This document shows, one piece after another, positions 22,539 through 44,640 of a stretch of DNA of 64,000 nt. Made by a program: the position numbers and the translations under genes. The stretch spans positions 1,930 to 65,929 of the forward strand of contig CP129478.1 of assembly GCA_030583845.1 (NCBI GenBank), written 5' to 3'. The notes below the pieces were generated by a model. The model did not search any database. It saw nothing but the letters and a program-made list of their open reading frames with translations, and was not told the DNA's origin. The first letter of the stretch is position 1; the number at the start of each line of letters is the position of its first letter. Source of the stretch: Candidatus Dojkabacteria bacterium (GTDB lineage: Bacteria; Patescibacteriota; Dojkabacteria; SC72; JAHDCA01).

Positions 22539-23153
22539 CTAACTATCCGCTGCACTCCAGAGAGCCATTGAAGCATATGTTCTATAAGGAGACCATCTCT
22601 TACTCCTGCTCAAAATTGTCTTGGAACTAGGTATTTTCTTATAGCCATATAGCTTTTGGAAACCTTTTCTTAGCCCTAAATCTCCGAGAGAGAAAACATC
22701 TTCCCTCCCAAGCGTAAACATCAGAAACATCTCAGCAGTCCACTGACCAACCCCTTTGATCTGCGTAAGGTGGTCAATCACATACTGATCATCTTTATCA
22801 TCAAGCTTTTCAAACTGCACCGTGCCATCGAGTGCTGCGGCTGCGATATTCTTGACGTAGTTGCCTTTGGCATTCGAAAGTCCCGCATTCCTGAGCTTTG
22901 CCTGCTCAATTGCCACAACTTTTTCGGGTGTGATTTCTCCATCAAAAAGCTGCTCATACCTTCCATATATCGTCCCAGCTGCCTTTCCCGATAGCTGCTG
23001 GTAAATTATCGAGCGGCAAAGCTTGATAAAGTACTGGTCTGAAGAAGTCTTGCTGATGGGCTCAAGGTCAAGCATAGTCAGCAGCTGTGCATAAATGGCT
23101 GGATCTTGCTGCTCAAAAAAATGTTTTACTTCTTCTAATCGATTCATACCCAA
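22539..23153 (-). CDS. HhH-GPD DNA glycosylase (DNA-3-methyladenine glycosylase II / AlkA-like)
   Basis: LTQIKGVGQWTAEMFLMFTLGREDVFSLGDLGLRKG helix-hairpin-helix plus Gly/Pro-Asp motif. Confidence 0.8.
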   Translation of the reverse strand: MGMNRLEEVKHFFEQQDPAIYAQLLTMLDLEPISKTSSDQYFIKLCRSIIYQQLSGKAAGTIYGRYEQLFDGEITPEKVVAIEQAKLRNAGLSNAKGNYVKNIAAAALDGTVQFEKLDDKDDQYVIDHLTQIKGVGQWTAEMFLMFTLGREDVFSLGDLGLRKGFQKLYGYKKIPSSKTILSRSKRWSPYRTYASMALWSAADS

Positions 23154-23275
23154 TTATACAGGTCTGACCTTCACAGGGCGTCCCGGACCAGGGACGCCCT
23201 GTGAACGAAATCGGCTCCCAGAGCCGCAAAACTACACATGGTATAATCAGCTGGCTAAACTTTTACAGTAATTTT

Positions 23276-23695
23276 ATGAATCCTACAGTAAAAGCATTTC
23301 TCGAGAAGGAACGTGTGTGCGGATTAACCATCTTGCAGCAAGATGGTTCATTACATTCAGCCGCCATGCATTTTTCATTAGTTGAAGAGCCTTTCCAGCT
23401 ATATTTCTCGACAGATATAACCACTCGCAAAGGAAGCAAGGTGGCTAATGAGCCTACCAAAGCTGCATTTACCATCGGATTTTCGGAGGAAGAATGGAAA
23501 ACATTGCAAATCGAAGGCGATATACGTGTCGCTACCGACGAAGAAGTTCCGGCCATCAAAGAGGTTCATTATTCAAAGAATCCTGGCTCGAAGAAGTTTG
23601 AAGGTGATCCAAACACCCGCTTTCTGATTCTAACACCAACCTGGTGGAGGTATACAGATTTCATGAAAGACCCGCTTGAGATTATTGCTGCTTAG
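23276..23695 (+). CDS. Pyridoxamine 5'-phosphate oxidase-like FMN-binding split-barrel protein
   Basis: About 140 aa from the internal ATG at 23276; pattern typical of the general-stress-protein-26/PNPOx family. The 5' extended ORF (from 23201) is antisense-overlapped and less likely. Confidence 0.55.
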   Translation: MNPTVKAFLEKERVCGLTILQQDGSLHSAAMHFSLVEEPFQLYFSTDITTRKGSKVANEPTKAAFTIGFSEEEWKTLQIEGDIRVATDEEVPAIKEVHYSKNPGSKKFEGDPNTRFLILTPTWWRYTDFMKDPLEIIAA

Positions 23696-42226: not shown

Positions 42227-43639
42227 ATGCACGAGCTTCCAAAAACCAAAATTATCGCCACAATTGGGCCTTCCACATGGGACGATGACACTCTCACAGA
42301 GATGATAAATTACGGATTTACAGTTGCCCGTGTTAACGCATCTTTTGCAGATTTTGACGAGCAGGAGCGTGTAATCACTCAGCTGAGACGCCTTTCACCC
42401 AAGGTGGCAGTGATGCTAGATACCATGGGCCATAAGGTTCGTGTAACCGGCTTTGATAAAGATAGAGTAATCGCGCCGGGCGATGAAATTATCTTGCTAT
42501 CAGAGAAAAACAAATCAAAGAAGCGCAACAGCATCAAAGTAACATACCCAACCCTCGAGAAAGATGTCACACGCAACACCAAAATCCTGATCGACGACGG
42601 CAACATTGAGCTAAAGGTCAAAGACATCGTGGGCAAAGAGGTTGTTTGCGAGGTGATACACGGCGGGGTGCTCAAGAAGCGCAAAACCGTCAATGTGCCA
42701 GGCGTCCATCTTAACTTCCCAGCATTGAGCGAGAAAGATGAAACAGACATTAAAAATGCGGTAAAACTAGGTTATGATTTCATCTCTGCTTCATTTGTAC
42801 GCAACTTGGAAGATGTGAAACTGGTGCGAGAGGCGATGGGTAAGTCAGATCTTAAGTTAATCGCTAAAATCGAAGACTACGAGGGTGTTAGAAATTTCGA
42901 CAAGATCTTAGAGAAAGTCGACGGTATCATGGTTGCACGAGGCGATCTAGGCGTAGAGCTGCCTTTAGAAGAGGTGCCAATCCTCCAGAAGCAGTTTATC
43001 CAGAAATGCAGGATGAAAGGGAAGATCGTCATTGTCGCAACACAGATGCTCGAGTCAATGCGAGAAAGCACTCGCCCGACCCGCGCGGAGACTAGCGATG
43101 TAGCGAATGCCGTGATGGATGGTGCAGATGCAGTAATGCTCTCTGCAGAGACTTCTACAGGCAAGAACCCTGTTGAGACTGTTAAGCACATGGCTAGGAT
43201 CGCCAAGAGAGCTGAAGAGGTGCTCCGCCCACAGATCGTAGAAGGACGAACTGACGCTTACGAGATTTCAGATATTATATGCAAACATCTTTTTGGTATA
43301 ACGGAAGAAGTAGCGCTTAAAGGAGTTATAATTTTCAGCGATTCCGGTAATACCGTGAAGTCGCTTGCGCGTCATAGACTTAACATCCCTATCTGGTGCG
43401 TCAGCAACAACCATAAAATCATCCGCCAACAGCAGATGATCCGTGGCGTTACTGGCATTTATGTCGAAAATATGGAGAGCGACAGAGACGAAATCGCCAA
43501 GCATGCTGTATCAGCTATTTATGGCCGCGGTTACTTGGAAATGGGAGATAAAGTTGCTATTATTAGCGGAGGTACAGTACATAATCGAAGATATAACACT
43601 ATCCTCGAAATTCTCGAGGTTCAGGCAGTCTTGGAATAG
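42227..43639 (+). CDS. pyk: Pyruvate kinase
   Basis: TKIIATIGPS, MVARGDLGVE and C-terminal regulatory domain. Confidence 0.95.
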   Translation: MHELPKTKIIATIGPSTWDDDTLTEMINYGFTVARVNASFADFDEQERVITQLRRLSPKVAVMLDTMGHKVRVTGFDKDRVIAPGDEIILLSEKNKSKKRNSIKVTYPTLEKDVTRNTKILIDDGNIELKVKDIVGKEVVCEVIHGGVLKKRKTVNVPGVHLNFPALSEKDETDIKNAVKLGYDFISASFVRNLEDVKLVREAMGKSDLKLIAKIEDYEGVRNFDKILEKVDGIMVARGDLGVELPLEEVPILQKQFIQKCRMKGKIVIVATQMLESMRESTRPTRAETSDVANAVMDGADAVMLSAETSTGKNPVETVKHMARIAKRAEEVLRPQIVEGRTDAYEISDIICKHLFGITEEVALKGVIIFSDSGNTVKSLARHRLNIPIWCVSNNHKIIRQQQMIRGVTGIYVENMESDRDEIAKHAVSAIYGRGYLEMGDKVAIISGGTVHNRRYNTILEILEVQAVLE

Positions 43640-43675
43640 CCAGCCACGAAATTTGTACTTACCCACTGTTTACCC

Positions 43676-44098
43676 AGTTCACGAGGAGAGTAAAGTACCT
43701 CACTCAGGGATGGTATTATAGTGGAGCACCATTTTTTATTTAACTTTTTGTGAACGTTGAAATTAAATTCGATGCCATTTTTTAGAATACATTTTATGAA
43801 CGTTAAGTGATCTACGATCACAGTGAGCAGAGCAGTGGCGGTAAAGATAAGCGAACAAGGATGTTTAGGTTACAATTTTATGAACGTAAAGAGATCTCTA
43901 TCTCGGTGAGGGAGAAGTTAACTCAGGAATGGTATATAGTGGAGCACCATCTTTTATTTAACTTTTTGTGAACGTTAAGTGATCTACGATCACAGTGAGC
44001 AGAGTAGTGGCGGTAAAGATAGCGAACAAGGATGTTTAGGTTACAATTTTATGAACGTAAAGAGATCTCTGATCTCAGTGAATAAAATTGTAACCTAA
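43676..44098. repeat. Tandem direct repeat, about 2.2 copies of a ~175-220 bp unit, filling the pyk-tRNA intergenic region; unit 1 carries a 46-bp internal duplication
   Basis: Copy 1 (~43697-43916) and copy 2 (~43917-44098) align at ~90% identity. The motif TT(G/A)TGAACGT(T/A)AAG(T/A)GATC recurs 5 times. There is an internal palindrome GTGATCtacGATCAC. A 20-bp inverted repeat (44026-44045 / 44079-44098) ends 1 nt before tRNA-Cys. Confidence 0.8.
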
Positions 44099-44099
44099 A

Positions 44100-44172
44100 C
44101 ATCTGGTCGTGTAGCCAAGCTGGTAAGGCAAGAGTCTGCAAAACTCTGATGCGCGGGTTCGAATCCCGCCAC
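44100..44172 (+). tRNA. tRNA-Cys (anticodon GCA)
   Basis: Manual cloverleaf fold: acceptor GGTCGTG/CACGACC, anticodon loop CTGCAAA, T-arm GCGGG-TTCGAAT-CCCGC, discriminator U; CCA not encoded. Confidence 0.9.
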
Positions 44173-44196
44173 GACCTTATTTAATAAAGAGAAACT

Positions 44197-44280
44197 GCTA
44201 AGCCGGGGTGGTGGAATAGGCAGACACGCGGGACTTAAAATCCCGTGCTAGCAATAGCGTGCGGGTTCGATTCCCGCCCT
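44197..44280 (+). tRNA. tRNA-Leu (anticodon TAA), type II with long variable arm
   Basis: Acceptor GCCGGGG/CCTCGGC (one G-U), anticodon loop CTTAAAA, T-arm GCGGG-TTCGATT-CCCGC, discriminator A. Confidence 0.9.
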
Positions 44281-44304
44281 CGGCACATTTCCTAAGTATT
44301 GAGA

Positions 44305-44640
44305 CTAATTTGTATCGGTAAACCGATCTGGGTCTGCATTGCCGCAGCGTGGGCAACTGTTTAGAGGCTTCTGCCCTTCATATACATAGTTACATTGTAA
44401 GCATTTCCAGTTTCTCCATCGGGCATCTAGGTCTTCTGGCATGACCTTGTCTGTAAGAAGTGGATCGTCTGTGACGGCTCCATCTGCAGCTGGAGCAACT
44501 GGCTGTACTGGAGCCTGTGCGGCTGGAGCAGGGGCAGCGGGTGTCTGAGCGTTTGGCAGAGTTGTGCTGGGAGGCGTACCCATAGACGGGGTACTTGGTG
44601 TATTCGTAACGGTTGGGTTAATCGGAGAGGTATTTTCCAT
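44305..44640 (-). CDS. Pro/Thr/Ala-rich protein with C-terminal CxxC...CxxC zinc-ribbon
   Basis: KCLQCNYVYEG...CPRCG; the N-terminal 60 aa are low-complexity P/T/A. Confidence 0.5.
   Translation of the reverse strand: MENTSPINPTVTNTPSTPSMGTPPSTTLPNAQTPAAPAPAAQAPVQPVAPAADGAVTDDPLLTDKVMPEDLDARWRNWKCLQCNYVYEGQKPLNSCPRCGNADPDRFTDTN

Follow-up and report, generated by a model that had tools for sequence, protein, structure and literature searches.

Introduction

Hairpins that lie between the genes of a co-transcript, and that are not terminators, are known from several systems. The REP/BIME elements of enterobacteria and the inverted repeats at the 3' ends of chloroplast mRNAs shield the upstream message against exonucleases that work 3'-to-5'. 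REPs number in the hundreds, dispersed, share a conserved GTAG head and are accompanied by a cognate RAYT transposase. The early RNase III signals of phage T7, such as R1.1, lie between cistrons and consist of two helices around an asymmetric loop, and cleavage leaves a protective hairpin on the upstream message. With mitochondrial tRNA punctuation and at Escherichia coli secG-leuU, a tRNA comes directly after an mRNA, whose 3' end is set when the tRNA is excised. The spacers of tRNA operons can themselves yield functional RNAs, as the E. coli glyW-cysT-leuZ operon does with 3'ETS-LeuZ (PMC6191717). Here we analyze the 465-nt non-coding spacer between the stop codon of the pyruvate kinase gene (pyk) and the tRNA-Cys gene in a 64-kb stretch of contig CP129478.1 from an uncultured Candidatus Dojkabacteria bacterium; this whole stretch is referred to below as the window.

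Bacteria that belong to the Candidate Phyla Radiation (CPR, or Patescibacteria) have tiny, tightly packed genomes, and their RNA processing is hardly known. One clade among them tolerates, and apparently maintains, a structured insert of 155–465 nt exactly at an mRNA–tRNA junction where its relatives have 6–35 nt. We describe this insert as an array of modules, the last of which is predicted to form a long hairpin against the 5' end of tRNA-Cys. The explanation we favor, if tentatively, is that the spacer is a clade-specific modular structured RNA in a pyk/tRNA-Cys/tRNA-Leu co-transcript and acts as a processing or 3'-end-stabilizing signal.

Results

A long predicted hairpin abuts tRNA-Cys

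The spacer contains the longest inverted repeat in the window, with perfect 22-nt arms (22/22) at 44031–44052 and 44082–44103. A further G44030–U44104 pair brings the predicted outer stem to 23 bp (44030–44052/44082–44104), so that its base abuts position +1 of tRNA-Cys at 44105. An earlier inspection of the letters by a model that ran no database searches (the sequence-only reading) had reported an inverted repeat here; the repeat is real, but its arms had been placed about 5 nt off. Inside the outer stem, the predicted internal loop comprises GA, a 2-bp AC/GU mini-helix and a 5-nt bulge (GUAAA) before a 6-bp inner stem, and the return strand reads A, GU, GA. The predicted minimum free energy is -35.8 kcal/mol, with z = -9.1 relative to dinucleotide shuffles.

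Equivalent hairpins occur at the same junction in a sister species, represented by L006 and L133. Both have an outer stem of 20 bp, leaving 0 unpaired nucleotides before tRNA +1 in L006 (as in the window) and 1 in L133, and both have an inner stem of 13 bp; their z-scores are -9.4 and -8.7, respectively. The 5' loop is GAACGUAAA in the window, GAACGUAGA in L006 and GAACGUUAA in L133, so the three terminal hairpins carry either GAACGUARA or GAACGUUAA, while the 3' loop is AGUGA in all of them. We model the generic module as an outer helix followed by G-A, A-C, a 5-nt bulge (GUWRA), an inner helix of 5–13 bp, A, G-U, G-A and the return of the outer helix. The hairpin, together with the repeats described below, is far beyond chance.

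RNase III signals are structurally defined by about 20 bp or more of double-stranded RNA with an asymmetric internal loop, and the predicted hairpin fits this description in all three genomes (outer helix 20–23 bp, loop 9+5 nt, inner helix 6–13 bp). By reading the predicted fold, we also compared the loop with a kink-turn, in which a three-nt bulge stands directly before tandem sheared G-A pairs and a G-A on the opposite strand adjoins the C helix. Tandem G-A/A-G pairs are possible beside the outer helix and AGU is a candidate bulge, but seven extra nucleotides (ACGUWRA) stand on the non-bulged strand.

The spacer is an array of diverged modules

Direct repeats with a period of 172 nt run through the spacer: 43775–43849 is 89% identical to 43947–44021, 43792–43899 is 97% identical to 43964–44070, and 43850–43899 is 100% identical to 44021–44070. 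No other site in the window has direct repeats of at least 30 nt. The program TRF reported nothing on the spacer because the repeat copies differ by indels. The whole spacer had been read as copies of one unit, and the 172-nt-period copies (89–100%) bear this out except over the first 36 nt, which are unique.

Underlying the 172-nt unit is a smaller module, which measures about 85 nt and consists of 5'-TGAACGTWAAG, a short 5–6-bp hairpin and (A/G)GTGAR-3'; it is present in five copies, of which one is truncated (Table 1). As had been claimed, the recurrent motif has five copies: TGAACGTTAAGTGATC is matched with at most two mismatches at 43797, 43881, 43969 and 44052, and a truncated copy lies at 43751. 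The window has four matches compared to 0.63 expected, all four inside the spacer, these occurrences being copies of one another and hence non-independent.

Copy 1 of the large repeat contains 46 extra nucleotides (43717 versus 43763). The 5' part of its truncated module Sa1a is 98% identical to 43935–43976, and the 3' end of Sa1a enters the 46 nt (43759–43804) that are present in unit 1 and absent from unit 2. Module Sa2 in turn matches a fusion, at TGAACGTT, of the Sa1a 5' part (98%) with the Sa1b 3' part (97%). The 46-nt duplication is not a recent slip, because identity between its two copies is only 64%, compared to 89–100% between the large units. On this comparison, the 46-nt element is an older partial module that is missing from copy 2, with the apparent breakpoint within the motif at TGAACGTT. 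The description of the array as "actively slipping" is therefore apt in one respect, since both species and strains with 93.7% identical pyk DNA vary in how many modules they have and in how these are arranged, but it does not suit the 46-nt element, which is old.

Sb2 is the sole module with a right arm. The left-arm copy of Sb1 (43860–43881) is identical to 44031–44052, and Sb1 lacks a right arm of its own. These two identical left arms compete for the one right arm at 44082–44103, and long-range pairing across a 200-nt loop is possible beside the local hairpin.

The repeats do not stem from misassembly. Both Logan contigs listed for an identical pyk (two samples) stop at window position 43826, and four Logan contigs from four samples begin at 44041, and it is there that a 31-mer starts to be shared with, or to separate, the repeat copies. 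Contig breaks in independent samples thus fall exactly at the repeat boundaries, and we conclude that the repeats are not an assembly artefact. The sister-species short-read contigs L134 and L135 also end in the spacer, 60 nt past the pyk stop, after ...TTCAGCAAATCAA, which suggests either strain heterogeneity or repeats at the locus in those samples too.

Helices are replaced while the architecture is kept

The pyk gene of L006 is 71.6% identical to that of the window at the DNA level. Its spacer carries three motif copies, M1 (TTTATGAAAGTAGAG), M2 (GCGAACGTTAAGG) and M3 (TTTATGAACGTAGAG), of which M3 is the complete hairpin. When the spacers were aligned (alignment A1), Sa paired with M2 (GAACGTTAAG) and Sb with M3 (GAACGTARAG), and the 5' motif was kept in the non-terminal modules across species. 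This correspondence places the origin of both module types before the species split.

L133 is a close relative of L006 (pyk DNA 93.7% identical, tRNA region 96%). Its spacer holds one complete hairpin and matches L006 through GCGAACGTTAAG, after which the two are wholly different up to the tRNA. L137 and L138 have the L133 arrangement with GAAGGT replacing GAACGT in the terminal module (L137 4654–4726, minus strand), an allele in which the C-G pair predicted for the 2-bp mini-helix would be lost. L139 equals L133 over the part covered, from the inner stem onward.

Base pairs were counted by script, as the unequal lengths of the inner stems cause MAFFT alignments of the hairpins (A2 and A3) to put the 3' half in the wrong place. 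In a gap-free register from the loop, the outer stems of the window and L006 have 9 pairs in common, 10 two-sided changes, one G-C to G-U change and one broken pair. Between the inner stems of L006 and L133, 9 of the 13 pairs are the same and the other 4 are two-sided changes. The array turns over fast but keeps a structural constraint.

Four roles had been offered for the element, and a tRNA leader or processing structure fits best because the sister species keeps the hairpin length class, the tRNA +1 position and the internal loop with different helix sequences. The overall interpretation given with the sequence-only reading is thus partly supported.

Strand and promoter evidence

All five G-U pairs in the three terminal hairpins (one in the window, one in L006 and three in L133) are valid on the plus strand only. 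The plus strand also folds more stably than the minus strand in each genome, at -35.8 versus -33.1 kcal/mol in the window, -38.6 versus -31.8 kcal/mol in L006 and -40.1 versus -28.7 kcal/mol in L133. The two conserved blocks of the module lie 15–33 nt apart depending on the copy, and therefore they meet only in a folded single strand.

These observations bear on the idea that the spacer is a regulatory array at the DNA level, where the TGAACGTWAAG motifs and small palindromes would be operators or promoters for tRNA-Cys/tRNA-Leu. Repetition of the motif upstream of a tRNA operon is consistent with this idea, and the motif and a palindrome had been said to look like operator sites. The palindromes GTGATCtacGATCAC and GAGATCtctGATCTC turn out to be inner stems of modules, which remain paired although their sequence differs from copy to copy and from species to species, so that pairing is conserved and sequence is not. 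The distance between the conserved blocks is too variable for an operator, and the spacing of the motif copies (46, 84, 88 and 83 nt) is not iteron- or operator-like. No sigma-70-type promoter was found in the window spacer at a threshold of 9/12. A relaxed scan gave nothing of at least 8/12 in the L006 and L133 spacers and weak, non-conserved sites in the window, including a -10-like TAAAAT at 44083–44088 that would speak for a promoter. As a positive control, the same scan recovered a conserved TTAYCA-N17-TAGAAT located 8–10 nt 5' of tRNA-Leu in L003–L005, and it is therefore able to detect promoters of this group. The 6–15 nt spacers of relatives are, moreover, too short for a promoter. We consider a DNA regulatory array very unlikely.

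A plus-strand search of 43400–44500 gave no intrinsic terminator; the Sb2 stem is A+U-rich and is followed directly by the tRNA.

The spacer is an insert relative to other Dojkabacteria

The distance from the pyk stop to tRNA-Cys is 6, 12 and 9 nt in L003, L004 and L005 (pyk 61–64% amino acid identity to the window), 15 nt in L008 (67%) and 35 nt in L007 (74%). These five more distant Dojkabacteria therefore have only 6–35 nt at the junction, compared to 216 nt in L006 (P0002, 81% amino acid identity) and 155 nt in L133 (P0121, in the same 90% cluster). A scan of GTDB genomes with pyk gave just three relatives, at 61–64% identity, and a scan of JGI metagenomes for pyk relatives found none. The contig of L136 (cmk 69% identical) ends inside tRNA-Leu. 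Judged from these spacings, the 465-nt spacer is an insert relative to distant Dojkabacteria and the element appears restricted to one small clade. Spacings of 6–15 nt leave no room for a promoter, so a pyk-tRNA co-transcript cut by RNase P would be the simplest ancestral state.

The window's pyk protein is 100% identical to WKZ31188.1, a protein from a Candidatus Dojkabacteria metagenome-assembled genome at NCBI. The gene order at the locus is SBP_bac_5, SecG, a 138-amino-acid protein with no significant Pfam match, pyk, the spacer, tRNA-Cys, tRNA-Leu, RUBY_RBDX (minus strand), a cytidylate-kinase-like gene (minus strand), FtsW and MurG. The neighbors looked at are all housekeeping genes, and the sister species shows an identical flanking order. 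We presume that pyk is the source of the transcript entering the tRNAs, and tRNA-Leu is probably on the same transcript as tRNA-Cys.

Table 1. Features of the pyk/tRNA-Cys/tRNA-Leu locus (window coordinates)
Feature	Coordinates	Strand	Parts and evidence
pyk, pyruvate kinase (470 aa)	42227..43639	+	Open reading frame; Pfam PK + PK_C; stop codon bounds the spacer upstream
Unique head of spacer, outside any repeat	43640..43675 (36 nt)	+	
X0, purine-rich head of repeat unit 1	43676..43716	+	Partly diverged counterpart is X1; alignment A1
Module Sa1a, truncated	43717..43762	+	5' motif only (TGAACGTT at 43751-43758)
Module Sa1b, complete core, no long outer stem	43763..43849	+	Loop GAACGTTAA 43798-43806; inner hairpin GTGATC-TAC-GATCAC 43807-43821; AGTGAG 43822-43827
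Module Sb1, complete core	43850..43910	+	GAACGTAAA 43882-43890; inner hairpin GAGAT-CTCT-ATCTC 43891-43904; GGTGAG 43905-43910
X1, head of repeat unit 2	43911..43934	+	Alignment A1
Module Sa2, complete core, no long outer stem	43935..44020	+	GAACGTTAA 43970-43978; inner hairpin GTGATC-TAC-GATCAC 43979-43993; AGTGAG 43994-43999
Terminal module Sb2, complete hairpin adjoining tRNA	44021..44104	+	Hairpin proper 44030..44104; 5' loop GAACGTAAA 44053-44061; inner stem GAGATC 44062-44067 / GATCTC 44071-44076; 3' loop AGTGA 44077-44081
tRNA-Cys (GCA)	44105..44177	+	ARAGORN; Rfam 68.7 bits; CCA not encoded
tRNA-Leu (UAA)	44202..44286	+	ARAGORN and Rfam; 24 nt 3' of tRNA-Cys

Several further features of the locus were noted. 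In the window, tRNA-Cys is followed by TTATTT where the CCA would stand (44105–44180), and the tRNA-Cys of L003–L008 and L133 ends ...T-CCA (regions compared include L006 5651–5730 and L133 2236–2315). The tRNA-Leu(UAA) genes checked, those of the window, L003 and L006, do not encode a CCA. Distant Dojkabacteria have a 168-amino-acid open reading frame (ORF) with a NUDIX domain between tRNA-Cys and tRNA-Leu (L003 4505–5011, also L004 and L005; Pfam E = 1.4e-14, scored on the L003 ORF). The window, L006 and L133 lack this ORF and have 24–63 nt between the two tRNAs. In the sister species this spacer contains a second hairpin, some 10 bp long (ATATGGATGC ... GCATCCATAT), at approximately 5727–5770 in L006 and 2312–2355 in L133; the 24-nt spacer of the window holds no hairpin. 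The second-longest hairpin in the window is at 23170–23205, a perfect G+C-rich inverted repeat of 15 bp with a 6-nt loop (TTCACAGGGCGTCCC / GGGACGCCCTGTGAA) between the ORFs 22539–23153 (minus strand) and 23201–23695 (plus strand). It resembles a terminator.

Searches for known and dispersed elements

A search against Rfam 15 at the gathering score, which had been suggested as a check, returned only the two tRNAs. Below that threshold (E up to 10) there were generic long-hairpin miRNA models only, and these differed among the three genomes. The suggestion that the unit might be a dispersed repeat of the MITE (miniature inverted-repeat transposable element) kind found no support in the sequence scanned either. 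With blastn-short and a two-block regular expression, no copy was found outside the spacer in the 64-kb window, which covers about 6% of the 1.04-Mb genome, or in approximately 140 kb of related loci, one chance match inside murG aside. The 22-nt degenerate motif had no exact match in the JGI metagenome or IMG/VR collections, and blastn of the spacer against phage and plasmid collections gave no match. A gapped-motif scan of IMG/VR yielded at least 120 single matches, from which a screen for flanking complementarity left L054 only. This candidate has a 12-bp stem with several G-U pairs and no tRNA on its contig, and we judged it to be a chance match.

These searches speak to a further explanation, namely that the element is the remnant of a mobile element: a MITE- or REP-like palindrome, a transposon end, or what is left of successive integrations at the tRNA gene. 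In favor, the element is an inverted repeat around a short interior and is inserted relative to other Dojkabacteria, and short-read assemblies break within it, although the local repeats alone account for the breaks. Apart from the missing second copy and the blank motif, phage and plasmid searches, the sequences flanking the hairpin (...ACAAG|GATG... and ...CATC|TGGTCG...) share no direct repeat on reading, so that there is no target-site duplication, and no integrase- or transposase-like gene is present among the neighbors looked at. Scars of tRNA-targeted integration (att) consist of a duplicated tRNA-gene fragment at the element border, usually from the 3' end, with an integrase nearby. 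The spacer contains no tRNA-derived repeat, the element sits at the tRNA 5' end, the neighbors are housekeeping genes and the flanking order is the same in both species. We therefore set aside the integration scars that had been offered as one of the possible roles, and a mobile-element remnant of any kind is extremely unlikely.

A number of other identities were considered and rejected. GGA motifs are about as frequent as composition predicts (approximately 8 versus 7 expected) and there is no Rfam match, which argues against a CsrA/RsmZ-like sponge. A GATC/Dam cluster is not indicated: 7 GATC sites in 465 nt are ordinary here, given 4.6 per kb in the window and 406 windows of 465 nt with at least 7. 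For a replication origin there is no GC-skew switch, and by eye the spacer bears only a weak resemblance to DnaA boxes and parS. For a LexA box (GAAC-N4-GTTC or GAAC-N7-GAAC), the second half-site is not kept between modules, again by eye. GTTAAGT of the Sa motif fits the integron attC consensus GTTRRRY, yet it lies in a loop and not at a stem base, and it is absent from Sb and M3. The hammerhead, twister, hatchet, pistol and HDV-like ribozymes, 6S RNA, Y RNA and T-box all gave no Rfam signal at E up to 10. Type III toxin-antitoxin arrays of the ToxI kind are near-identical tandem repeats of 34–45 nt followed by a toxin gene; here each unit has about 85 nt (the large repeat 172 nt), the copies have diverged, and tRNA genes follow them.

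Coding potential was likewise dismissed. A small ORF starting ATG-AAC-GTA... is 15 amino acids long in the window, 6 in L006 and 4 in the Sa modules, and so is not conserved. Longer spacer ORFs (54 amino acids on the plus strand and 66 on the minus strand) have no Pfam match, and the repeat period of 172 nt is not divisible by 3. The Logan gene calls include a 67-amino-acid minus-strand ORF (43621–43821) that runs across the repeat and overlaps the pyk stop; it has no Pfam match and is probably a spurious call.

Discussion

A model for the terminal hairpin

Only the module adjacent to the tRNA retains the full outer helix, with 20–23 bp or approximately two turns of double-stranded RNA and a base 0–1 nt from the RNase P site. 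If the spacer is a structured RNA of the kind we favor, it would be at once the 3' untranslated region of pyk and the 5' leader of tRNA-Cys. Co-transcription of this sort has a precedent in E. coli, where tRNA genes sit in operons that can include mRNAs (PMC2190699). RNase P would cut at 44104/44105, and the pyk mRNA would then end in a 23-bp hairpin with no 3' overhang. This flush terminal hairpin would block 3'-to-5' decay of the pyk mRNA by polynucleotide phosphorylase (PNPase). We propose such a block because PNPase, like RNase II, is stopped by 3' stem-loops (PMC2190699) and CPR bacteria retain PNPase, as well as RNase III (rnc) and RNase J (PMC12641178). Alternatively or additionally, the two-turn helix and conserved asymmetric loop could be a recognition signal for RNase III or another protein that separates the mRNA from the tRNA. 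The upstream modules would be older copies or duplicates in which the core has been retained but not the outer helix, and slippage, unequal recombination and template switching from one TGAACGT copy to another could make the array grow and shrink. We argue for selection because the loop is never "corrected" to a stem, each arrangement has one two-turn helix, and this helix always ends at the tRNA.

Several points weigh against this proposal. A helix flush with position -1 leaves the protein of bacterial RNase P no single-stranded leader, which could slow cleavage. Both co-transcription and every cleavage step are things that we infer, and the proposal assigns no role to the upstream modules without outer stems. 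The loop is not invariant, as GAAGGU replaces GAACGU in L137 and L138. If a 3-bp indel is allowed, the window and L006 arms have an alternative alignment (GATGTTTAGG versus GAAGTTTATA), in which the count of two-sided changes drops from 10 to about 3, accompanied by a coordinated change in length. Arms from different modules are, in addition, paralogous (GTTTGTGAA resembles GTTTATAAA). Because only two species and four alleles carry the element, the covariation carries little statistical weight, although the pattern is suggestive. Finally, template switching during replication can make or re-perfect hairpins in one event without any selection on RNA (PMC8794818).

Selection, mutation or a partner protein

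This last mechanism is central to an explanation without function, in which the spacer is self-propagating quasi-palindromic repeat DNA that arose once and was re-perfected by slippage, unequal recombination and template switching, the stems being mutational by-products. It would account for the fast turnover, most clearly for L006 and L133 being identical through GCGAACGTTAAG and wholly different from there to the tRNA, and for indel breakpoints that fall on the repeated motif, including that of the window's 46-nt indel. The perfect 22/22 arms of the window are as expected after a recent template switch (PMC8794818), the upstream modules look decayed, and the loop is polymorphic in L137 and L138. 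However, such a process should erase the asymmetric loop, yet GAACGUWRA / AGUGA stays unpaired in every module of both species at a pyk DNA identity of 71.6%. Each arrangement contains exactly one full hairpin of 20–23 bp and it is 0–1 nt from tRNA +1, while the stem mismatches are G-U on the plus strand only. A useless insert of 155–465 nt would also be conspicuous in a densely packed genome of approximately 1 Mb. We regard the functionless explanation as somewhat unlikely.

It could also be speculated that the module is a new structured RNA motif in its own right, with two helices around the asymmetric loop GA-AC-GUWRA / A-GU-GA, recognized by a nuclease or RNA-binding protein or processing itself. 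In this Dojkabacteria clade, such a motif would punctuate the mRNA-tRNA co-transcript, fixing both the tRNA-Cys 5' end and the pyk mRNA 3' end, and modules would be born beside the tRNA and decay further upstream. This seems to us rather unlikely.

Another possibility is that the spacer gives rise to a protein-binding or sponge small RNA in which the core (UGAACGUWAAG, hairpin, AGUGAR) is a multi-copy site, freed by RNase P and protected at its 3' end by the terminal hairpin. The cores number 5 in the window, 3 in L006 and 2 in L133, and variable module number is also seen in sponges of the CsrB/RsmZ type. Conserved blocks flank a variable hairpin, and the core is kept even where the outer stem is lost. 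That a tRNA-operon spacer can yield a functional RNA is shown by the 3'ETS of glyW-cysT-leuZ (PMC6191717). On the other hand, none of the genes nearby encodes a candidate partner protein, GGA motifs show no enrichment, two cores suffice in L133, and the motif was found nowhere else in the window, the related loci, the JGI metagenomes or IMG/VR. We think a sponge RNA quite improbable.

If the hairpin is indeed a processing or stability signal, it would be a concrete case of how mRNA and tRNA are separated and stabilized in organisms whose reduced RNase set comprises RNase P, RNase III, PNPase and RNase J. The reach of this case is limited by the two species known to carry the element, at a single locus, and by a function that is deduced from structure. 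The element is also a natural example of hairpin turnover, where helices are replaced while the asymmetric loop and helix length are kept, and as such it bears on the question of template switching versus selection.

Comparison with known systems

We place the element in none of the families with which we compared it, and the structural criterion for RNase III signals is the one that it fits. Like the REP/BIME elements and the chloroplast inverted repeats, it consists of intergenic hairpins that are not terminators and whose copy number and arrangement vary between strains. Unlike REPs, it is confined to one locus with no dispersed copy in the scanned sequence, its stem of 20–23 bp is much longer, its asymmetric loop is conserved, and its place next to the 5' end of the tRNA is fixed.

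The T7 R1.1 signal shares with it the two helices around a sequence-conserved asymmetric loop and approximately two helical turns of duplex. There is no sequence similarity between them, however, and the loop is 9+5 nt here compared to approximately 4+5 in T7. The Dojkabacteria element also abuts a tRNA, so that RNase P alone could make the cut, and RNase III cleavage is a prediction only.

E. coli 3'ETS-LeuZ is similar in being spacer RNA of a tRNA-Cys/tRNA-Leu(UAA) operon with a possible role of its own after precursor processing. The E. coli element lies 3' of leuZ, has a Rho-independent terminator and pairs with RyhB, whereas the Dojkabacteria element lies 5' of tRNA-Cys and is modular. 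The Dojkabacteria relatives with 6–15 nt spacers look exactly like mitochondrial tRNA punctuation and secG-leuU; the long hairpin flush with the tRNA 5' end is what sets the present element apart from these systems.

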